DNA of 64,000 nt from a bacterium (GTDB taxonomy: Bacteria; SAR324; XYD2-FULL-50-16): assembly GCA_032250835.1 (NCBI GenBank), contig JAVVEA010000014.1, positions 28,375 to 92,374 on the forward strand. Reading direction: 5' to 3'. Position numbers and translations under genes: made by a program. Below the pieces are notes generated by a model. It saw only the letters and a list, made by a program, of their open reading frames with translations. It made no database searches and had not been told where the DNA came from. Shown in pieces: positions 10,973 to 54,766 of this stretch. Each line of letters opens with the position of its first letter. Within the stretch, counting starts at the first letter, position 1.

Positions 10973-11150
10973 ACCCCACCCCGAAAGGATTCTCCCTTCC
11001 TTTGGCGCTTCGGCCTCCCCTTCGGCAAGCTCACCCGCACAATAAGTTGCGCCCTTTCCTACAAACTTAAAGGGCAATCCCTGATTTCTTCGGACCGCGA
11101 CAAGGGTTAAGCTAGGCTCAAGAATAAACCCATAGTTTCTTCGAGGAGGC

Positions 11151-11558
11151 ATGATGAACCGACCCCATACTTTTGCTAAAACAAATAATTCTGTGCCATT
11201 AGCTTCGGTCCACCCGGAACCGGCTAATGAAGACAACCACCGTCTGCGGCAATTGGTGGTGCTGAGCATGCACCTTTCTTCGATTCTCTGGCGCAAAGCA
11301 TCCCAGCGGGGCCGCGCCGAATTAGCCATGGAGTCCGGCCTGTGGACCGTGATCGCCCAGGTGGGTGGAAAGTTGTTGACCCAAACGATGGACCGACACT
11401 TTTCCCTAGTGACCTTGCCGGTAGAGCCAAACTACCGTTCGGTGATTTTGACGGCAAAATATGTGCTGCGCGCCGCCGAGGGCCTATCTTGGAGTGAAGA
11501 GGCCGAAAAACTGGAATTGGTTTGTTCCGAGTTGGAGCGTCGGCTCAAGGGCTTTTAA
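11151..11558 (+). CDS. Stand-alone ChiS-DBD-like protein
   Basis: W...SQRGRAELAMESGLWTV...TQTMDRHFS...LPVEPNY..VILTAKYVL aligns with the C-terminus of 9..842 and with 24476..24919. GGAGG RBS before the ATG. Confidence 0.65.
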   Translation: MMNRPHTFAKTNNSVPLASVHPEPANEDNHRLRQLVVLSMHLSSILWRKASQRGRAELAMESGLWTVIAQVGGKLLTQTMDRHFSLVTLPVEPNYRSVILTAKYVLRAAEGLSWSEEAEKLELVCSELERRLKGF

Positions 11559-11570
11559 ACCCAAAGGTAG

Positions 11571-12026
11571 TTGATGGAGTTCTCTCGTTGGATAGGACAA
11601 GCGCGGCCCATAGAGCAGATGGGGGTGGTGGAGTTTGATGCACAATACCGCAGGGTGGCGGGTCTGGCCAAACTACTAGAGCGCAGTTTTAAAAGCCCCC
11701 AAACGGCTCTCCTGGTCCCTTTACTGTTTGAAAACTTAAGGCTTTGTGCCCTGCGCTACTTTCGGTTTGAAGAAAAATTGTTGCTCTGCTTTAGGCCTGA
11801 AGAACAGCAGGAACACTTGCTGGACCATGACTACTTGCAACGCAGCCTGAGCGAGCTCAGTCAAGCCTCTCCCCATCTCCCCTCCGGCCAGCTTGAAACC
11901 CGCAGTTTGGAGATCTTCGAATATTGGATCTACCAGCATATGGAACGCAAAGACCGGGCATTAGCCCAATGGCTCTGCGACCAAAATAAATTTTGCCAGC
12001 TCTACCTCCCCGTTCTCTGCGATTAG
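11571..12026 (+). CDS. Hemerythrin-like protein with atypical ligands
   Basis: GVVEFDAQY, YFRFEEKLL, EHLLDH, WIYQHMERKD follow the bacteriohemerythrin pattern, with Tyr at two His positions. Confidence 0.7.
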   Translation: MMEFSRWIGQARPIEQMGVVEFDAQYRRVAGLAKLLERSFKSPQTALLVPLLFENLRLCALRYFRFEEKLLLCFRPEEQQEHLLDHDYLQRSLSELSQASPHLPSGQLETRSLEIFEYWIYQHMERKDRALAQWLCDQNKFCQLYLPVLCD

Positions 12027-12054
12027 CGGACGCAAACCGCTAGCTGCCCCTTAG
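11827..12054 (+). repeat. 228-bp direct repeat, left copy (3' end of the hemerythrin-like gene plus 28 bp downstream)
   Basis: Colinear with 17626-17853; 6 mismatches by eye. Confidence 0.95.
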
Positions 12055-12081
12055 AATCAGAATCAGGTGACAGGAATCAAT

Positions 12082-12161
12082 AATCAGGTGGCAGTATGCT
12101 GATTTCCGATCAAATTTTAGGAACTGCACTGTTGCAAAAATAGGCATACTGCCACCCTATT
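12082..12161. repeat. 80-bp imperfect-palindrome element (REPIN/MITE-like), copy A
   Basis: Arms AATCAGGTGGCAGTATGC and GCATACTGCCACCCTATT; about 80% identical and gap-free to 17546-17625. Confidence 0.85.
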
Positions 12162-12438
12162 ACTATTGGTTTCATTCGCTGGGAGTGGGATTTTTATATT
12201 GATTAAAGATAACAAAAGAATAAATTCACTACCCCGTACCGGAACCGCCACCGAACTTTTTTTTGACATTTCCAAAGCTTTTGTGGAAACATCTGCCCTA
12301 GGGAAAATAGCCTATTCCTGATAAGGATAATTCTTAATTTTACTTTTAAAGCGCCCAGGAAAAGCCGATTCCCTTGAAATAGCCGTTAAATCAACCGTTT
12401 TCTGTTAGGTGGACCATCTGTGTGAGGTGAGAAAATGA

Positions 12439-13950
12439 ATGCTTTTTATCCATTGGGTTTCGATAATGTTTTGGGTTACCTCCTGCGGCAACGCAAACCA
12501 GGGGGACCAAGGGACCGCTGCAAGCAGCGGGTATGAAGGGGGCAGCGGTGAAGACCACGAAGGCAGCGACGGCGGAACCGGCTCGACCCAAGGCACCAGT
12601 GAAGACCTTGCCGAACGGGGTAGCGAGTTGGGCGGAGCCGGAAACCTCCCGGCGGATGTTTTGCCCCGGTTGGTGAAAACCAAAGGCCCGATGAACAAGG
12701 TCTACTTCCACCCCAACCACATCCAAACGGCCTCGATGATCACCGACGCCGATGGCCGGGTGCAAGCCCGCATCCGCCACTTGCCTTACGGTGAGGTAGA
12801 CGTGCAAACGACGGTGGACGAAAAGCAATCGGCGACCCAATACGCCGCCTTCACGGGCCAGGAGATGGACGATTCTACGGGCTTGATCTACTACAACGCC
12901 CGTTATTACGACCCCAGCATCGGCCGCTTCATCAGCCCCGATTCGGTCATCGACGGCGACGGAACGGCGGCGATCCATTTCAACCGCTACGCCTACGTAG
13001 CCAACAATCCGATCAACTACAACGACCCGACGGGGCACAACCTAGTGAAGTTCCAATTTTATAACGGAGGGACCGAATATGCGGTAACCCAAGCGCAATT
13101 GAGTAGTTATAACGAATATTATAGAATCGATGGTAGGGGTGTCACAAAATCAGCGAATTGTTGGGGATGGAGTAGCTATTGTGAGTTGCTCTGGAGCGAT
13201 TACCAGTCTGCCCTAGCCCAGGCCGAAGCCGACGCTCAGGCCGCTGAAGAAGCCGCAGCGGCAGCAGCTGCCGCCGCCGAAGCGGAAGCCGAGGCCCAAG
13301 CCGCAGCCGAAGAAGCCGCCCGCCTCGCCGAGTTGGAGCGCATCCGCTTAGAGCTGATCCGCCAAGGCAAGATAGACGCGGCCAACGCCTTTAAGGCCAA
13401 CTACAAAACGCTGTTGCACAGTGGTACGGACCTTTCGCAGTACTCCGCCAGTTCGGAGACTCAAGGTACTTACGAAGGCTCCGAGGGAGTAAAGCCTTCT
13501 GGTGATTTCAGGGACGCGGCCCGCACTTCAGAGTTTTGGTTAGCAGTTGCTGTTGTTGTCGCGGTGGTAATAATATTTTTCTGCGCTCCGTGTGCTGCCG
13601 CTATTGGCCCGACTTTTCTTGGTACCGTGGGCGGTGCAATTGGCGGAGCCGTGTATGGTTGGGGGAGCGGAATCAACGTGAAGCACTATAGCGGAGAAGA
13701 TTTATCGAATTACATAACAGAAAATGCGTTGATCGGAGCTTCTATCGGCGGGTTGTATGATGCTGGTTTTGCAGTAAAAGGCTTGATGAAAGACGGATTT
13801 CCTCTCTGGGAAAGTGTAGCCAGCGTTGGTATTTCCGGCTACTTGAAAGGTAAAGTGGCATCTGCTTCTTCTTTGCATCACAACGCTGCGAGTGCTGTCA
13901 GCTCGGCTGGCAGCACTATAAAGAGTGCAGGTAAAGCACTGGGTTTTTAA
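12439..13950 (+). CDS. Short RHS repeat-associated core protein with lipoprotein-like N-terminus and hydrophobic glycine-zipper C-terminus (candidate polymorphic toxin)
   Basis: YFHPNHIQT, FTGQEMDDSTGLIYYNARYYDPSIGRFISPD, NRYAYVANNPINYNDPTG (PxxxxDPxG cleavage motif); N-terminal FWVTSC; GAGGTG RBS. Confidence 0.85.
   Translation: MLFIHWVSIMFWVTSCGNANQGDQGTAASSGYEGGSGEDHEGSDGGTGSTQGTSEDLAERGSELGGAGNLPADVLPRLVKTKGPMNKVYFHPNHIQTASMITDADGRVQARIRHLPYGEVDVQTTVDEKQSATQYAAFTGQEMDDSTGLIYYNARYYDPSIGRFISPDSVIDGDGTAAIHFNRYAYVANNPINYNDPTGHNLVKFQFYNGGTEYAVTQAQLSSYNEYYRIDGRGVTKSANCWGWSSYCELLWSDYQSALAQAEADAQAAEEAAAAAAAAAEAEAEAQAAAEEAARLAELERIRLELIRQGKIDAANAFKANYKTLLHSGTDLSQYSASSETQGTYEGSEGVKPSGDFRDAARTSEFWLAVAVVVAVVIIFFCAPCAAAIGPTFLGTVGGAIGGAVYGWGSGINVKHYSGEDLSNYITENALIGASIGGLYDAGFAVKGLMKDGFPLWESVASVGISGYLKGKVASASSLHHNAASAVSSAGSTIKSAGKALGF
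12740..13687 (+). repeat. 948-bp near-identical repeat, copy 1 (RHS core to conserved TM region)
   Basis: Matches 14711-15658 at offset 1971; only a few substitutions near the 5' end. Confidence 0.95.
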
Positions 13951-14046
13951 TACCCGAGCTTGATTAATGGAACCTATGCGAGGAATCGCATAGGTTCTTG
14001 AACGCAACTTACCTTGTGTTTAAGCCTATTTGCAAAGGAACAGAAT

Positions 14047-14682
14047 ATGGAAAGGGTCAAAACGGAACAACAAATGGCCAAAATGTTTCAGACACTACGG
14101 TGCTGGGCCTATAAATATGCTGGGGCTGCTTTCTATGTAATAATGTTTGTTGGCTGTGCGCAGGTGTCGGACATTTACATGAATTACGATATGAAGAAGC
14201 CAAAAAGCGAAATCTGCACCCTGTTCACAAAGGGACAAAAAACTGTCAGAACGGATGTAAACCAATTTTTTGGAGTCGACTTGATTGCTGTAGATGGCCA
14301 ACTCATGCGGAACAGCAAGTTAATTCGAAAGGGAGAAACTAGTCCTCGGTATATTTCGGAACAAGACCCCTATATCCTCTATGGTGGCAAACAATATGAG
14401 TTTTCGATTGTGGAGGCCAGACTTACCCCTGGTATTCATGATTTGGAAGTTCAATATCTTACAAATGGATTGCTTCCCGGACAGTTTCTGTATGCTAAAG
14501 TCAAGTTTATCAATTGGGAATGCAAGGCTGGGGAGCGGTACTACATATACAGTTCCAACGATGAGGTATTCAACCATTGGGGCGAACACAGATATTGGAT
14601 AGAGGACGAGAATCAGGTTCTTTGGGAAGGCTGGAAATATCGATCAATAAATGAATTTACTTTTGATTTGTCCGGCCCCTAG
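14047..14682 (+). CDS. Lipoprotein, paralogue 1 (candidate immunity protein)
   Basis: Lipobox MFVGC; homologous to 16181..16807 and 16872..17501; follows the RHS gene. Start uncertain (ORF open from 14014). Confidence 0.75.
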   Translation: MERVKTEQQMAKMFQTLRCWAYKYAGAAFYVIMFVGCAQVSDIYMNYDMKKPKSEICTLFTKGQKTVRTDVNQFFGVDLIAVDGQLMRNSKLIRKGETSPRYISEQDPYILYGGKQYEFSIVEARLTPGIHDLEVQYLTNGLLPGQFLYAKVKFINWECKAGERYYIYSSNDEVFNHWGEHRYWIEDENQVLWEGWKYRSINEFTFDLSGP

Positions 14683-14710
14683 GCATCTTCTAGAGTTCAG
14701 ATTAGAGTCT

Positions 14711-15948
14711 TCACCGACGCCGATGGCTGGGTGCAGGCCCGCATCCGCCACTTGCCTTACGGTGAGGTAGACGTGCAAACGACGGTAGACCAGAAGCAAT
14801 CGGCGACCCAATACGCCGCCTTCACGGGCCAGGAGATGGACGATTCTACGGGCTTGATCTACTACAACGCCCGTTATTACGACCCCAGCATCGGCCGCTT
14901 CATCAGCCCCGATTCGGTCATCGACGGCGACGGAACGGCGGCGATCCATTTCAACCGCTACGCCTACGTAGCCAACAATCCGATCAACTACAACGACCCG
15001 ACGGGGCACAACCTAGTGAAGTTCCAATTTTATAACGGAGGGACCGAATATGCGGTAACCCAAGCGCAATTGAGTAGTTATAACGAATATTATAGAATCG
15101 ATGGTAGGGGTGTCACAAAATCAGCGAATTGTTGGGGATGGAGTAGCTATTGTGAGTTGCTCTGGAGCGATTACCAGTCTGCCCTAGCCCAGGCCGAAGC
15201 CGACGCTCAGGCCGCTGAAGAAGCCGCAGCGGCAGCAGCTGCCGCCGCCGAAGCGGAAGCCGAGGCCCAAGCCGCAGCCGAAGAAGCCGCCCGCCTCGCC
15301 GAGTTGGAGCGCATCCGCTTAGAGCTGATCCGCCAAGGCAAGATAGACGCGGCCAACGCCTTTAAGGCCAACTACAAAACGCTGTTGCACAGTGGTACGG
15401 ACCTTTCGCAGTACTCCGCCAGTTCGGAGACTCAAGGTACTTACGAAGGCTCCGAGGGAGTAAAGCCTTCTGGTGATTTCAGGGACGCGGCCCGCACTTC
15501 AGAGTTTTGGTTAGCAGTTGCTGTTGTTGTCGCGGTGGTAATAATATTTTTCTGCGCTCCGTGTGCTGCCGCTATTGGCCCGACTTTTCTTGGTACCGTG
15601 GGCGGTGCAATTGGCGGAGCCGTGTATGGTTGGGGGAGCGGAATCAACGTGAAGCACTTAAGTGGGGAGGAGTTGAGTGCTTACATAGTTGAAAACGCGA
15701 TGATCGGGGCATCGATTGGTGGGCTATACGATGGATATAAAGCGATTGAAGGGGGGAGTACCATTGCGTATGAACTGATGAAAGGTTACGTGAACGGAGG
15801 CATAGTTGCTGGCTCGGCTCTGCAGCAAAACCTTACGAGCGGGGCTACGGCAGTCGGAAAGACAATAGGAAGTGTGGGGAAGTCATCTGTAAGCAGCGTT
15901 GGGGGTGGAGTTTCTCCAGTGAAGGATTTAATCAAAAACTTAATGTAA
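14711..15948 (+). pseudogene. Orphan (start-less) RHS core/C-terminal cassette with an alternative C-terminal tip
   Basis: Begins abruptly in mid-core at 14711 with no obvious RBS (the ORF track uses GTG 14731); near-identical to copy 1 up to 15658, then diverges. Confidence 0.75.
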
Positions 15949-16180
15949 GTGGCTTAACCCGAAGCCGATAGCAGTGTTGGCTATCCTGATTTGCCTTTCG
16001 CTTCATTGAGGATGTATTTTGGAGTGATTTTAGAAATTATTCTCATAAAACTGAGGACCCGATCAACCTGTTGCCCTCAATGTGATTTAGATGAAGTAGG
16101 CGTTATTTAGGTGCTTTCGGTTTCGAAAGTAAAAAACGTTGGGGTTTACGCTAAAAACTCTTTTAAAATGGATTGCAGCA

Positions 16181-16807
16181 ATGACCCATCAGGCCAATAG
16201 ACGACTTCAGCCGAATAGTGTTTTTCATTTCATTGCAGCATCGTTGCTTTGCTTGGTGACTTCCTGCATGGCTCCGGTTTCGGATACTTATTTGAATTAT
16301 CCAGAACCAAAAGCCGATAGCGAAGTCTGCATCGTCAAAACCTCACCGGGAGAGCAGACTGTTAGGACCGATGTGAAATCGGTACAAAACGGGGAGTTTT
16401 ATTCGGTAGATAGTCAGTTGATGCGTACCAGCAAACTGGTTCGATATGGGGAGACTTTGCCGAGAAATATTTCTGAAAGTGACCCCCAACTTTGGACCTA
16501 CGAAGGCACCAAACATCCCTATCATGTTTATAAATTGAAATTAACCCCTGGAAGGTACCAATTAGTTGCCATTTTTCCCTACGAGTTAGACTCTATCCTA
16601 GAGCATAAATTGCATGATAAAATCACCCTTAAAAACTTTGATTGCAAAGCAGGGGAGAGCTATCGTTTGTTTTATTCGTTGGATAAATTTCCTGAAAAGG
16701 AGGGCATGCGTCTTTTTTGGATGGAAGGGGAGCAGGGGGTAATTTGGGAAAGATGGAAACACAAAACTCAACGCGAAGCCTTGTTTGATCTCTCAGATGT
16801 TAAATAG
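16181..16807 (+). CDS. Lipoprotein, paralogue 2 (candidate immunity protein)
   Basis: Lipobox LVTSC; shared motifs SD.Y.NY, TVRTDV, QLMR.S.L.R.GET.PR.ISE.DP, LTPG, CKAG. ORF open from 16139. Confidence 0.75.
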   Translation: MTHQANRRLQPNSVFHFIAASLLCLVTSCMAPVSDTYLNYPEPKADSEVCIVKTSPGEQTVRTDVKSVQNGEFYSVDSQLMRTSKLVRYGETLPRNISESDPQLWTYEGTKHPYHVYKLKLTPGRYQLVAIFPYELDSILEHKLHDKITLKNFDCKAGESYRLFYSLDKFPEKEGMRLFWMEGEQGVIWERWKHKTQREALFDLSDVK

Positions 16808-16871
16808 ATTATTTGAGGACGCAAATTGAGGCCACAAACAGAGCGAATTCATGGTGAAATGAGCCAAAAAA

Positions 16872-17501
16872 ATGGATATGCAAAAGTTAAAAGAAAAGTT
16901 GGTTAGGAGCGGTTCCTATACGGGTATGGCCCTCTTGTTTGCGGTCCTTTCGGCTTGCTCGCCGGTTTCGGATATTTACCTCAACTATGATGGGACCAAG
17001 CCGAAAAGTGAGGTATGCACCCTGCGGACTCAAGGAACCCACAGCATAAGAACGGATGTGGACCGGAAATATGGCATGAAGCTCATCGCTGTGGACGGTC
17101 AATTGATGCGCGATAGCCAGTTGATCCGGGTTGGAGAAACCACGCCGCGGTATATTTCAGAAAATGATCCCTATTTTGTTCAAGGTGGAGAACGACATTA
17201 CCTTGTGACGGTTGTCGAAGCTCGGCTAACGCCAGGAAAGCACGATTTTGAAGTAGCCAACTTCACCGGTGGAAGCGGACCTCTCCCTGGGCAAATAGCG
17301 ATCGACCACATAAAGTTTCTTAATTGGAATTGTAAAGCAGGCGTTACCTACCAAGTATTTTATTCCAACGACGAAGTTTTCGGTCATTTGCGTGAGTACA
17401 AATATTGGATTGAGGACGAAAACCGAGTTCTTTGGGAAGGGTGGAAACGTCTTTCGGTCCAAAATGTTACCTATGATTTGAGCAAAATTAAGGCACCTTG
17501 A
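16872..17501 (+). CDS. Lipoprotein, paralogue 3 (candidate orphan immunity protein)
   Basis: Lipobox VLSAC; strongly similar to 14047..14682 (LIAVDGQLMR, VEARLTPG.HD.EV, YWIEDEN.VLWEGWK). Confidence 0.78.
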   Translation: MDMQKLKEKLVRSGSYTGMALLFAVLSACSPVSDIYLNYDGTKPKSEVCTLRTQGTHSIRTDVDRKYGMKLIAVDGQLMRDSQLIRVGETTPRYISENDPYFVQGGERHYLVTVVEARLTPGKHDFEVANFTGGSGPLPGQIAIDHIKFLNWNCKAGVTYQVFYSNDEVFGHLREYKYWIEDENRVLWEGWKRLSVQNVTYDLSKIKAP

Positions 17502-17545
17502 ACGGGCCAACATGTTTTACCTGCTTGTCATCGGGTGCCCAAAAA

Positions 17546-17625
17546 AATTAGGTGACAGCATACTGATTTCCGATCAAATTTCATGAACTGCGTTGTCGAG
17601 AAAATAGGCATGCTGTCGCCTGATT
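17546..17625. repeat. 80-bp imperfect-palindrome element (REPIN/MITE-like), copy B
   Basis: Arms AATTAGGTGACAGCATAC and GCATGCTGTCGCCTGATT; directly abuts the right 228-bp repeat. Confidence 0.85.
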
Positions 17626-17853
17626 ATGACTACTTACAACGCAGCCTGAGCGAGCTCAGTCAAGCCTCTTCCCATCTCCCCTCCGGCCAGCTAGAAACCC
17701 GCAGTTTGGAGATCTTCGAATATTGGATCTACCAGCATATGAACCACAAAGACCGGGCATTAGCCCAATGGCTCTGCGACCAAAATAAATTTTGCCAGCT
17801 CTACCTCCCCGTTCTCTGCGATTAGCGGACGCAAACCGCTAGCTGCCCCTTAG
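17626..17853 (+). repeat. 228-bp direct repeat, right copy (duplicated 3' fragment of the hemerythrin-like gene; gives the fragment ORF 17583..17825)
   Basis: Near-identical to 11827-12054. Confidence 0.95.
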
Positions 17854-18135
17854 GCCCTCAAATGATAAACGGACGCTTTGGCTTCTTGGCTAAGCTTTCT
17901 TCATCCCCCATCCAAAAGGCTCCACCGGGCCGTCTGTGGGCCTGCCCAAACACCTACTGACGGGTCTTTGATCTGATCTTAAAGGAGGTTGTCCGGCTAT
18001 CACCCGCTCTTTGTGGGGATACCTTTTGGGTTAGCTTGGCAAAGGGGTCAAATAGTGGTGAAATCTGGACATATTTCTGACATACTCACCGGGGTAAACA
18101 GGCGAACAGCGTGGGATCATAGGAAGAGTAGGGAC

Positions 18136-21143
<3,008 letters not shown>

Positions 21144-21147
<4 letters not shown>

Positions 21148-48658: not shown

Positions 48659-48960
48659 TCAGTACTTGAGCTTAAACAGGCGGTGCTTGGCGGTGATTTC
48701 GGCGGCTTCGCCTAGGTGTTTGACACCCTTGGCGGCCAGCAGGGGGATCAGGCGTAAAAAAACCAGGGCGGTCATTTTGGCGTCTCCTAAGGCTTGGTGC
48801 CGGTTGCTTGGGGTCGATGCCAAACCGGCGGGCTAGGTCTTCAAGGCCCCATTCGCTGTCTAAGCAAAATTCGGCCAAACAGAGGCTGTCGAGCACCGGC
48901 ATCTACTGCAAATTCCAATAACTGGGGCCAACGGGACGTCAAGGGCGGTTGGCGTTTAAG
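48659..48960 (-). pseudogene. Duplicated, frameshifted 3' remnant of the exonuclease gene 53444..54766
   Basis: 48661-48893 is about 95% identical to 53446-53677 (about 10 substitutions and 1 extra base by eye); 48905-48960 encodes the diverged peptide LKRQPPLTSRWPQLLEFA versus LTNEPTLASHWPKFLEFA. Confidence 0.88.
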
Positions 48961-53443: not shown

Positions 53444-54766
53444 TTAGTACTTAAGCTTAAACAGGCGGTGCTTGGCGGTGAGTTCGGCGGCTTCGCCTAG
53501 GTGTTTGACGCCCTTGGCGGCCAGCAGGGGGATCAGACGTAAAAAAACCAGCGCCGTCATTTTGGCGTCTCCTAAGGCTTGGTGCCGGTTGCCTGGGTCG
53601 ATGCCAAAGCGGCGGGCTAAGTCTTCAAGGCCCCATTCGCTGTCTAAGCAAAATTCGGCTAAACAGAGGCTGTCGAGTATGGGCACCGGGGGAGTAAAAT
53701 CCAATTGCTGGCGGAAAAAGGCCAGATCAAAGGCCAGATTGTGACCCAGCCAGACGGCTTGGTCCGCGAATTCTAGAAACTTAGGCCAATGGGACGCTAA
53801 GGTTGGTTCATTGGTTAGCTGGTCGATGGTGATGCCGTGTATGTTGGTGGATTCTGGTGAAATGGGGCAGCCCGGCCGGAAGCGCTGGAGGTATTGTTCG
53901 CCTTCTAACAAGCGCCGCCCGGTCAGCCGCAGGGCCCCCAACTCGATCACCTGATCCCCCTTGGAGGGGTTGAGCCCGGTGGTTTCTGTGTCCAGGCAGC
54001 AATAGGGCAAGTCGCTTAAGCGGCACGCCCCCCAATCAGCGGGGTCTTCGGGTAGGCCAGCAAAATGAGGCGCAAAAACCAGGGGGGAAGGTTCACAGGG
54101 CTGGCCGTCTGGTTTGGCTTGAGGGCCGCACTTAAGCCACTTCCAAGGGAGCCCTTCGGGCTGGGCAAGCGGTAGGGTTTCCAAGGGCTTTGGTAGCGCC
54201 TCTGCTCCCGAGGGCAGCGGGCGGCCCAGTTGCAGGCCTTGGATTTGCTGGAGCGCTGGTTCGTTGTATAACAAGACCCGATTTTTGGGCCCCAATAGCA
54301 GTTGGGCCCGGTGGTCGGCGCAGAAGAGGCGGTTGAGTACTAGGGCTTCTTCGGCGGCCAGTTCGCCCCGGTCCTCGTGGCCCCAGCGGTTTAAGTAAGC
54401 CTGTTCGGCGGCGTATTGGTTGATCACTTCGGCTAGAGCACGGGCCTCGGGGCTGCCTTCGGGCAATATTTTGTGGCTCACGTTGCCTTCGTGGATCCAG
54501 CGGGTTTGGTCCGCTAATTTGAGTAGCGGGAGGATATAGGCGTGGTAAACCTGGGCCGAAAGGCTGTGCATCAACAGGCCAAACAAAACCCCGCCGCCTA
54601 GCAAAAAGGGGAAGGCTTTATGCCAACGTTGCAGCAGCCAAGCCTGTTCTTCTGGCGAAAAGGCGCGGTAGCTCAGGTAGAGCGTTAAGGCCCCAATCGC
54701 CCAAACGGCCAAGGTGGACAGGATCACATAGACCACATGCCGCCGCCATTTCCGCCGCCAGCTCAT
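53444..54766 (-). CDS. Membrane-anchored DnaQ-like 3'-5' exonuclease
   Basis: Two N-terminal TMs; DTETTGL, GHNLAFD, RHQALGDA DEDDh motifs. Confidence 0.88.
   Translation of the reverse strand: MSWRRKWRRHVVYVILSTLAVWAIGALTLYLSYRAFSPEEQAWLLQRWHKAFPFLLGGGVLFGLLMHSLSAQVYHAYILPLLKLADQTRWIHEGNVSHKILPEGSPEARALAEVINQYAAEQAYLNRWGHEDRGELAAEEALVLNRLFCADHRAQLLLGPKNRVLLYNEPALQQIQGLQLGRPLPSGAEALPKPLETLPLAQPEGLPWKWLKCGPQAKPDGQPCEPSPLVFAPHFAGLPEDPADWGACRLSDLPYCCLDTETTGLNPSKGDQVIELGALRLTGRRLLEGEQYLQRFRPGCPISPESTNIHGITIDQLTNEPTLASHWPKFLEFADQAVWLGHNLAFDLAFFRQQLDFTPPVPILDSLCLAEFCLDSEWGLEDLARRFGIDPGNRHQALGDAKMTALVFLRLIPLLAAKGVKHLGEAAELTAKHRLFKLKY

Follow-up and report, generated by a model that had tools for sequence, protein, structure and literature searches.

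REP hairpins and a duplicated gene 3' end at the borders of an array of Rhs tips and immunity-like genes in a SAR324 bacterium

The REPIN-RAYT systems, among them the REPINs of Pseudomonas fluorescens SBW25 and the REP/BIME sequences of Escherichia coli with TnpA_REP, are built, in the accounts cited here, on short imperfect palindromes scattered between genes, inverted doublets of which form hairpins of ~80-110 nt (PMC3116915, PMC3337134, PMC5581495). One Y1/HUH gene per genome, itself between inverted REPs, goes with them, and REP and RAYT are kept together across genera. RAYTs and REPINs are described as cargo-free and vertically inherited.

Orphan Rhs tip arrays were reportedly treated by Koskiniemi et al. 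in 2014. For displaced Rhs tips, the proposal in the account of Jackson et al. (2009; PMC2935791) is a circle and one homologous crossover; in this "C-terminal displacement" the conserved portion is duplicated, the gene receives the incoming end, and the previous one comes to lie downstream, together with the intervening genes. T6SS effector-immunity arrays of Vibrio cholerae have been ascribed, in the part of the literature relevant here, to homology-facilitated illegitimate recombination (Kirchberger et al., 2017; PMC5361080). Some integrative elements leave an island between two copies of a gene end, the gene being kept whole by the element-side copy. At icd, e14 and phage 21 duplicate the 3' end of their target. 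Tycheposons, as described, do the same at tRNA genes (10.1101/2020.12.28.424599).

Here we describe a locus each part of which belongs to a known kind. It lies in a window of 64,000 nucleotides (contig JAVVEA010000014.1 of assembly GCA_032250835.1, called C5 below), and all window coordinates count from its first base. The initial annotation knew of no described system with this architecture. That was too strong, as the parts map onto REPIN/RAYT systems and Rhs-style C-terminal displacement; the difference is that here REPINs bracket cargo and the island ends at their outer feet.

Anatomy of the island

The features are as follows, all on the + strand.

11571-12026, +: gene X, hemerythrin-like, intact, 151 aa (ORF); source of the duplicated 3' end
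11827-12054, +: left 228-nt copy, in continuity with the 5' part of X; final 197 coding nt of X with its stop codon, plus 28 nt beyond
12055-12078, +: "stutter", the REP outer foot in three partial tandem copies (AATCAG / AATCAGGTGACAGG / AATCA), read from the sequence
12079-12162, +: left REPIN; REP(+) arm, 32-nt spacer, REP(-) arm; begins 53 nt past the X stop
12439-13950, +: rhsA, 503 aa, detached Rhs tip (TIGR03696 profile and translation)
12740-13762, +: internal repeat, 1023 nt, 97%, matching 14711-15733; core and proximal tip common to rhsA and rhsB
14014-14682, +: immA, 222 aa, presumed immunity lipoprotein (sequence; no Pfam/NCBIfam family)
14731-15948, +: rhsB, 405 aa, second detached Rhs tip, 5'-truncated relative to rhsA; last ~60 residues differ
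16139-16807, +: immB, 222 aa, presumed immunity lipoprotein, paralogue (sequence comparison)
16872-17501, +: immC, 209 aa, third immunity-like paralogue, unpartnered (sequence comparison)
17543-17626, +: right REPIN; begins 42 nt past the immC stop; outer foot of its (-) arm abuts the displaced X end
17626-17853, +: right 228-nt copy, displaced promoterless X 3' end; followed by GCCCTCAAATG..., a sequence missing after the left copy
17989-21147, +: CHASE-PAS hybrid histidine kinase, right flank; backbone gene outside the island (Pfam)

A repeat search of the window gave the two direct copies, 97% identical over 228 nt, a match far beyond chance. Their six mismatches fall at repeat positions 11, 45, 68, 117, 119 and 121, and the final 107 nt are identical. 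By BLAST of the 3.66-Mb assembly, each 84-mer hairpin and each 228-mer is present solely at these two loci. The interior (12055-17625, 5571 nt) contains two Rhs C-terminal genes along with three lipoprotein-like paralogues; neither the ORF list nor Pfam and NCBIfam profile searches showed a recombinase gene within it. Its GC content is 0.489, against 0.566 and 0.564 in the 5-kb flanks. The initial annotation had recorded the repeat with its six mismatches, a hairpin abutting the right copy, stuttered arm fragments and then a second hairpin after the left copy, and a transposase-less interior of toxin-like and immunity-like genes only. All of these hold, with the hairpins as 84-nt elements, the right one sharing base 17626 with the repeat, and with the interior genes as Rhs tips and presumed immunity genes.

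Judged from its sequence, the repeat is the displaced 3' end of X, and the island starts 28 nt behind this gene. X itself scores below the thresholds of its families (Pfam Hemerythrin, 18.5 bits, cut-off 25.3; TIGR02481, 43.4 bits, cut-off 51.75), and no relative in the family exceeds 28% identity. Between the two copies of the repeat, 2 changes are synonymous and 4 non-synonymous, counts that do not favour a reading as two alleles.

Two described kinds of element were considered and rejected for the repeat. IS1634/IS1549-type elements make direct repeats of hundreds of bases beside inverted termini, an arrangement like the one seen here, and encode a DDE transposase. The initial annotation had pointed to them, but no DDE (IS4-type) ORF occurs in 12055-17625, and DDE transposases are present in the genome as fragments only (PF01609: two fragments, on C17 and C25). 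A diversity-generating retroelement was set aside too, with no match to the reverse transcriptase profile PF00078 in the genome and an A in the right copy at just 4 of the 6 differences.

The product of rhsA consists of the end of a YD shell, an RHS core domain (...NDPTGH), an Ala/Glu-rich linker and, at the C-terminus, a hydrophobic stretch rich in glycine. The core profile TIGR03696 scores 87.5 bits in rhsA and 87.6 bits in the other tip, against a cut-off of 32.5. Residues 7-226 of rhsA are 55% identical to the full-length Rhs gene that opens contig C39, and the rhsA and rhsB tips diverge over their last ~60 residues. As a pair they represent the classical form of Rhs C-terminal displacement. 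The island repeats the displacement logic internally, the 1023-nt core repeat preceding the second tip.

The imm genes are paralogous to each other (immA is 58% identical to immC and 38% to immB) and sit downstream of the tips, as expected of cognate immunity genes; immA has a lipobox-like VGC motif, read from its translation, and all three are presumed to be immunity lipoproteins. They match no known Pfam or NCBIfam family and have no homologues outside this genome. Specifically, immC was found in none of 87 other genomes of the class, and a word search for it among 5.8 billion proteins returned only immC itself and immA.

REP hairpins and a RAYT-like gene

Both hairpins are, to go by their letters, REPINs, inverted doublets of the genome's own 25-nt REP. 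They are 80% alike and lie in the same orientation, with arms of 25 nt, 84% complementary, around 32 nt. Folded as single-stranded DNA they reach -21.1 and -15.8 kcal/mol (z -3.3 and -3.5). The right one terminates in ...CTGTCGCCTGATT(A), base 17626 being common to hairpin and right repeat. An 18-mer arm core was found at 42 sites of the genome with up to 3 mismatches, against 3 in a shuffled genome, and at 29 sites with up to 2 mismatches, against none for a reversed-pattern control; in the 25-nt consensus, seven more positions are conserved beyond the search pattern. Density is about 1 REP per 87 kb, the sites examined all fall between ORFs, and ~9 inverted doublets occur, six of which were aligned, with 22-86 nt between the 18-mer cores. 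Between the left repeat and the left hairpin, the stutter ends in AATCA(AT). Partial REP copies lie upstream at 8 of the 42 sites genome-wide, and the stutter is therefore a trait of this REP family.

The initial annotation had suggested hairpins of REP type served in trans by a RAYT, and such a gene is present. The only match in the genome (G000) to Y1_Tnp, PF01797, is G000:C43:2516-3175 (42.9 bits; cut-off 23), which lies between inverted 25-nt REPs, REP(+) at C43:2442 and REP(-) at C43:3175. With 63 bits for REP_Tyr_transpos it does not reach the 80-bit equivalog cut-off of NF047646, and it is a distant relative of that curated NCBIfam family. Orthologues in two other genera, in genomes G015 (63%) and G017 (55%), are both flanked by the same REP and keep the HUH and RY[VI]ERNP motifs; these two are the only such cases among eight RAYT loci of relatives, the other six being without it. 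An alignment of nine sequences shows NHIHLL and RYVERNP to be conserved.

In its scattered palindromes, its hairpin-forming doublets and its single REP-flanked Y1/HUH gene, kept with the REP across genera, the family thus resembles described REPIN-RAYT systems. It differs in its score below the equivalog cut-off and in its number of sites, ~40 here against replicon-wide 16-mer counts of 57 and 140 given for RAYT groups 2 and 3. The consensus has neither GTAG nor CGTC, the tags named in one account (PMC3733652), at either end. Finally, the REPINs of the cited accounts are free of cargo, whereas here two of them enclose 5.4 kb of genes, with the island ending at their outer feet.

Duplicated gene ends elsewhere in the genome

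Duplicated gene 3' ends of 129-233 nt also border at least four more low-GC islands that encode no recombinase; at each of them a gene is made whole by one copy, the other being a fragment.

C17:25916/28217: gene 3'-end duplication, 180 nt, 98%
C5:77035/81820: gene 3'-end duplication within the window, 233 nt, 95%
C9:71691/72972/75040: RelA/SpoT gene end in three copies
C43:52139/53571: gene 3'-end duplication, 129 nt, 93%

Two of these four islands contain no REP and none has hairpins at both inner junctions; strong hairpins in both places are found at the X island alone. Cargo GC is below both 5-kb flanks in all eight rows listed, and REPs lie in or at four of the eight duplication-flanked islands on our list. 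No common motif was seen by eye at the repeat boundaries. At the second island of the window, 8 synonymous and 2 non-synonymous changes separate the copies, a pattern that would be expected of two alleles diverged under selection and not of decay after duplication. Pooled over five repeat blocks, the counts are 11 synonymous against 12 non-synonymous (pN/pS 0.33). ComEC and DprA are present in the genome; they also match in most control genomes and have little bearing on competence.

Possible origins of the island

The initial annotation had taken the 228 nt for a target-like duplication. The reading we prefer is a scar left by insertion anchored in X, akin to Rhs C-terminal displacement, rather than a transposase-made target duplication, because two REP-free islands also have duplicated gene ends and four other REP units lack flank duplication. 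In the five REP units with both arms well kept, there is no flank duplication beyond chance, the longest shared word being 8-10 nt against a shuffled maximum of 10; nor was a second copy of any REP-bounded cargo found.

Our best explanation, with a probability of about 0.5, is insertion of the array anchored by homology in X, with the REPIN foot as an illegitimate breakpoint. The cargo, two Rhs tips and three immunity-like lipoprotein genes, would have come from a related strain, and we infer a conspecific donor. The incoming DNA would have carried an X allele, including its 3' end, joined to a REP, the cargo and another REP. After recombination within X, its far end, which lay precisely at the right REPIN's outer foot, would have been joined illegitimately inside the resident X, so that X was completed by the incoming 3' end and the resident 3' end was displaced downstream as a dead copy. 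The foot might have become the breakpoint if a stable hairpin halts end degradation there, or if the RAYT nicks there. The topology would be that of single-crossover circle integration, as in the model for Rhs displacement, and also that of homology-facilitated illegitimate recombination. Direction and number of insertion events are inferred from one assembly, since an empty site, a donor and a second strain were not found.

This route differs from Rhs displacement in that the displaced end comes from an unrelated small gene. No full-length rhs lies upstream of the island, where the gene is hemerythrin-like; full-length Rhs ORFs are found on C39 (3-5654) and C14 (42920-48823), both cut by contig ends and neither adjacent. 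With the V. cholerae arrays, as described, it shares one homologous anchor, one illegitimate joint, an extra orphan immunity gene (here immC) and the lack of an integrase; there, the old effector is replaced and its immunity gene alone kept, whereas here the anchor is partly duplicated and the joint lies at a REP hairpin. Because five recombinase-free islands in one 3.7-Mb genome have displaced-gene-end flanks, we suggest that rhs-type C-terminal displacement serves this lineage as a general way of gaining islands, and that it can place toxin/immunity reserves at a distance from the main rhs genes.

The inserted DNA ends at REP outer feet on both sides, CCCCTTAG adjoining AATCAG... on the left and ...CCTGATT adjoining ATGACT on the right. 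Because both island ends fall exactly there, the REPs probably set the breakpoints. The same fact counts against homology-anchored insertion: a transposon model predicts it in one step, whereas anchored insertion needs a donor with a REP already in place. Also pointing against it are the REPs at four of eight islands despite their rarity and a purL-like fragment (124 nt, 86%) that adjoins a REP outer foot (C1:81914/81917).

Such a transposon would be a composite bounded by REPs, in effect a "giant REPIN" carrying cargo; it would be cut at its two outer feet and mobilised in trans by the RAYT, its 228 nt being either made at insertion, for example by joining of the ends to sister duplexes 228 nt apart, or a spare gene end travelling along. 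We think this unlikely, although it survives best among the alternatives. The feet at the island ends stand in the same (+)...(-) order as the REPs around the RAYT gene, and the pair C1:81917(+)/83106(-), the one with the purL-like fragment against its outer foot, encloses a PIN-domain gene. The arms of the two hairpins differ compensatorily at two positions, a signal that is not significant with two sequences, being reached in 108 of 500 shuffles. Besides the well-kept units without flank duplication and the four islands discussed above, the composite faces the single copy of both the X-island unit and the REP-PIN-REP unit, no second copy of either being found in this genome or in 18 family genomes. 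In G015, 90 REP sites in 20 stretches gave two flank duplications at a REPIN foot, neither a clear analogue. Y1 (IS200/IS605-type) transposition is moreover known to make no target duplication, and it cleaves within a few nt of the hairpin, which counts against the composite.

Slightly more doubtful is a broader idea, that REP pairs may bracket kilobases of cargo, such as the toxin/immunity array or the PIN gene, and that cleavage at the outer feet could seed or move such units to gene ends with a spare end, the interrupted gene staying whole: a gene-end-restoring insertion by a "domesticated" transposase. The REP feet at the island ends and the second fragment at a REP foot would offer a concrete place to ask whether gene acquisition takes its breakpoints from REP hairpins or from RAYT nicks. 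Should the REPs simply be resident elements of 3' UTRs, the locus would be an ordinary mosaic of parts already known.

It is also improbable, somewhat more so, that no transfer took place and that cargo already behind X gained the 228 nt by a template switch or an unequal sister exchange at a REPIN stall or break. The joint does lie exactly at the foot of a stable hairpin, and the interior holds a tandem duplication, of period 1971 nt, whose divergence is similar to that of the 228-nt repeat (97.1% against 97.4%). However, a template with the X end directly before GCCCTC... is the empty allele, so this account reduces to recombination of an occupied chromosome with an empty one, and it leaves unexplained the low cargo GC and the similar scars at other foreign-looking cargo.

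We regard as less probable still a site-specific recombinase, acting in trans or since lost, with the 228 nt as an att-type duplication around an integrase-less, cis-mobilisable relic. The 3'-end repeats fit such an element, as does the identity of their final 107 nt, and integrative elements, in the account cited, leave one host and one element att copy (10.1101/2020.12.28.424599). Just past the third gene-end copy of the RelA/SpoT locus, at the contig end, there is a gene for a XerC-like recombinase. An island driven by its own integrase was rejected, however, with no tyrosine or serine recombinase at the island end: the assembly has six matches to PF00589, none of them on contig C5, and none to PF00239. 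Several specificities would be needed for five different target genes without a visible boundary motif, and 129-233 nt is long for att cores. A stitching of two strain variants of the X end around the island is very improbable: this is a draft assembly, in 43 contigs and containing runs of N, and both full-length Rhs genes break at contig ends, but this contig has no N, the six differences let an assembler separate the copies, the joint between REPIN and ATGACT overlaps no other path able to create it, and four similar structures occur elsewhere in the assembly. At this joint, an 80-codon ORF (17583-17825) starts in the spacer of the right REPIN and runs in frame into the displaced X end.

Anatomy of the RHS island

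The initial annotation reported a 228-nt direct repeat and two hairpins, and these observations were confirmed. The features, in window positions, are as follows.

11571-12026, + strand: X, an intact 151-aa hemerythrin-like ORF (domain matches below threshold)
11827-12054 and 17626-17853: the 228-nt direct repeat, copies 97% identical
12079-12162 and 17543-17626: two 84-nt imperfect palindromes in the same orientation, 80% alike
12055-17625, between the repeat copies: five genes, rhsA (503 aa), rhsB (405 aa) and the three small paralogues immA, immB and immC (209-222 aa)

The repeat comprises the last 197 coding nt of X, its stop codon and 28 downstream nt; the left copy completes X and the right copy is a fragment. 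All six mismatches between the copies lie within the first 121 nt. Two finer points of the annotation also held: three incomplete copies of the outer arm (the "stuttered" arm fragments) fill the 24 nt that separate the left repeat from the left palindrome, and the right hairpin abuts the right repeat so closely that the last base of the palindrome is the first base of the repeat. Both palindromes fold better than their shuffles (z -3.3 and -3.5), and two compensatory arm changes distinguish them, genuine differences that fall short of significance when just two sequences are compared. In a BLAST search of the whole assembly, the 84-mers and 228-mers matched only these two places. An Rfam scan of 11000-18500 gave nothing above threshold (one sub-threshold Histone3 match, E 0.85), and a promoter and terminator scan gave counts not above those in shuffles.

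Both rhsA and rhsB encode an RHS-associated core domain (TIGR03696, 87 bits each), an Ala/Glu-rich linker and a hydrophobic, glycine-rich end. They have a 1023-nt stretch in common at 97% and then diverge, which is the usual layout of displaced Rhs tips. The Rhs tip had no match among longer proteins, and look-ups of a protein atlas returned no named family. The three small paralogues are 38-58% identical and have lipoprotein-like N-termini; it is gene position that suggests their immunity role, and searches of family profiles, genomes and proteins gave neither a family nor relatives beyond this genome. GC content is lower in the cargo (0.489) than in the flanks (0.566 and 0.564). The genome has two full-length Rhs ORFs, C39:3-5654 (-, >1880 codons) and C14:42920-48823 (+, >1960 codons); both leave their contig just past the core motif, so that the assembly lacks the tips and immunity genes that belong to them.

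Directly 5' of X lies a 135-aa ORF (11151-11558) without a family match. By tblastn the genome has six more sequences like it, at 27-43% identity; three are on contig C5, which carries the window at 28375-92374.

Hairpin arms as REP sequences and their transposase

The hairpin arm, 24-25 nt long, is a dispersed motif that BLAST missed. Its 18-mer core, AATCAGGTGACAGTATAC, occurs at 42 sites in the genome when up to 3 mismatches are allowed, whereas a shuffled genome has 3; at up to 2 mismatches the count is 29, and a reversed-pattern control has none. The 42 aligned sites yield a REP consensus, (A/T)AATCAGGTGACAG(T/C)ATAC(C/T)nATTT, in which conservation extends past the letters searched; there is none outside it. 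About nine REP sites in the genome are themselves inverted doublets with short spacers. Eight of the 42 carry partial tandem copies upstream, which makes the stutter a trait of the REP family. Rfam gave nothing above threshold on 12 REP loci (one cspA match reached 34.7 bits, the gathering score being 78). The 19-nt word in the hairpin spacer had no matches in public genome contigs, and its nine matches in public metagenome contigs are read as chance because none has the arms.

An inverted REP pair on contig C43, at 2442(+) and 3175(-), encloses a 219-aa ORF (C43:2516-3175) that is the sole match in the genome to PF01797, the IS200-like Y1 transposase family. Among NCBIfam families it matches "REP-associated tyrosine transposase" best, at 63 bits where the cut-off is 80; the ORF is called RAYT here. 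Y1 homologues were found in 16 of the 41 genomes searched, this one counted, and the HUH and RY[VI]ERNP motifs are conserved across nine aligned sequences. The two closest, each from another genus, are 63% identical (G015) and 55% identical over a partial match (G017). The same 18-mer flanks these two, but not the Y1 loci of six other relatives. G015 has 88 sites of the 18-mer at up to 2 mismatches, mostly in tight doublets 34 nt apart, and the sequence fetched from it is about 41-42% GC. An identical 18-mer, set against a RAYT at 63% and a different GC content, implies that the REP is far better conserved than either the enzyme or base composition.

The annotation's suggestion of REP-type hairpins is thereby upheld, and a RAYT exists in trans. 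The hairpins are REPINs, and the arrangement fits the published definition of a REP/REPIN-RAYT system. A Tn7-like end and a cyanobacterial MITE were also considered; both readings were given up when the motif of the arms pointed to the Y1 gene and sigma-54 activator genes had been seen.

At least five places (C39:76991-77590, C22:329300-329910, and on C14, C41 and C43) share a repeat about 0.5 kb long that is GC-rich and internally palindromic. It usually has a REP singlet ahead of it, oriented alike, and at C39 one behind it as well; the repeat has no Rfam match.

Duplicated gene ends and the origin of the repeat

Comparison of the genome with itself revealed several more direct repeats flanking kilobases of DNA. 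In four, an intact gene has one copy as its 3' end, while the second copy is a fragment lying past inserted genes.

Other islands of this genome flanked by a duplicated gene 3' end
C17:25916/28217: target a 164-aa ORF; cargo includes a GNAT acetyltransferase gene
C5:77035/81820 (window 48661-48901 and 53446-53685): target an RNase_T-domain gene (53444-54766, - strand), its last ~231 nt duplicated 4.8 kb off at 95% with one 1-nt indel; cargo of GDSL-lipase-like, SxtJ-like and carbamoyltransferase genes, GC 0.469
C9:71691/72972/75040: target RelA/SpoT, three copies of the gene 3' end
C43:52139/53571: target the NiFe-hydrogenase large subunit

The extra RelA/SpoT ends (C9:71647-76354) are 97.5% and 88% identical to the in-gene copy, and the copies separate two small cassettes, one with DUF2335 and one with a methyltransferase and DUF1848. 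Immediately beyond the last copy, where the contig ends, is a gene for a XerC-like tyrosine recombinase; no recombinase was found inside any of the four islands, and the RNase_T island also contains no REP. In all eight island rows, cargo GC is below that of both 5-kb flanks. No common motif was seen by eye at the repeat boundaries examined. Strong hairpins at both inner junctions occur only in the RHS island (z -5.4 and -3.5, against -2.05 to +1.2 elsewhere).

The simplest account for all five islands is homology-anchored insertion in a conserved gene, with the resident end shunted downstream. For the RHS island, we put at about 0.5 the probability that the 228-nt repeat is a gene end displaced in this way, with REP feet as breakpoints. 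Because all the island evidence comes from one draft assembly (3.66 Mb, 43 contigs), we infer the order of events, the donor and the enzyme. Incoming DNA would anchor by homology in X, and the resident end of X would be moved downstream of the cargo. The donor would be a close relative, because its X allele was 97% identical and it also had the lineage-specific REP. The left boundary would require a REP already 28 nt behind X in the donor; the right joint would require donor DNA that tends to end at a REPIN foot, where the hairpin might block end degradation or RAYT might nick. The empty site would be expected to read ...CCCCTTAG followed directly by GCCCTC.... Searches of 40 relatives for an empty site or second strain found no match to the X-region DNA, and the family relatives of the X protein are at most 28% identical.

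The same topology as suggested for these five islands was proposed for rhs tips by Jackson et al., who invoke a circle with a core fragment and tip and one homologous crossover (PMC2935791). Kirchberger et al. reach it through homology-facilitated illegitimate recombination (PMC5361080). In the RNase_T island, 8 synonymous and 2 nonsynonymous changes separate the copies, the pattern of two selected alleles. The X copies, with 2 synonymous and 4 nonsynonymous differences, are uninformative or mildly contrary for a two-allele reading. Pooled over five blocks, the counts are 11 and 12 (pN/pS 0.33).

The initial annotation instead saw a hairpin-bounded, non-autonomous unit moved in trans, with the repeat as a target-like duplication. 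The REPIN and RAYT identities stand, but the repeat is more likely a displaced gene end, similar scars occurring without REPs, and we regard mobilization by the RAYT as improbable. Both ends of the inserted DNA are indeed REP outer feet, arranged (+)...(-) as around the RAYT gene. Y1 transposition, however, is not known to make a target duplication, which counts against a RAYT-made one. The five REP units whose two arms are well preserved, the RAYT unit among them, show no flank duplication beyond chance. On C1 (81793-84721), a PIN-domain gene stands between REPs at 81917(+) and 83106(-). A 124-nt purL-like fragment, 86% identical to the neighbouring gene, lies against the outer foot of this REP pair, ending 2 nt before it; the intact purL-like gene is 2.7 kb from the fragment, with HTH and DUF6932 genes between the unit and that gene. 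No other copy of this REP-PIN-REP unit turned up in 18 family genomes, and no REP-bounded cargo was found to have a second copy. On C17, a degenerate REP foot, GTCGGCCTGATC, read by eye and unscored, lies 11 nt from the displaced fragment. REPs occur in or at four of the eight duplication-flanked islands listed, against about one REP per 87 kb overall, a co-occurrence that REP-rich accessory DNA could partly cause. Two of the four other 3'-end duplications have no REP. Finally, 90 REP sites in 20 fetched stretches of G015 gave two cases in which a flank duplication meets a REPIN foot. One is an 87-nt gene 5' region and the other a 119-nt repeat with REP-like ends; neither is a displaced 3' end or a clear analogue.

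An IS1634-type transposase, which the annotation had also named, is rejected as the source, as the assembly gave just two PF01609 fragments (one rve fragment was also found), and a DGR reading is rejected on comparison of the repeat copies and a genome with no reverse transcriptase. The genome has six tyrosine-recombinase matches, none on contig C5, and no serine recombinase; such absences weigh little, because insertion sequences may drop out of a draft assembly where its contigs end.

A further direct repeat, of 391 nt and 99.5% identity (C38:197517-197907 and 205302-205692), flanks 7.4 kb. It is intergenic rather than a gene end, and encloses two paralogous 691-aa lipoprotein-like genes.
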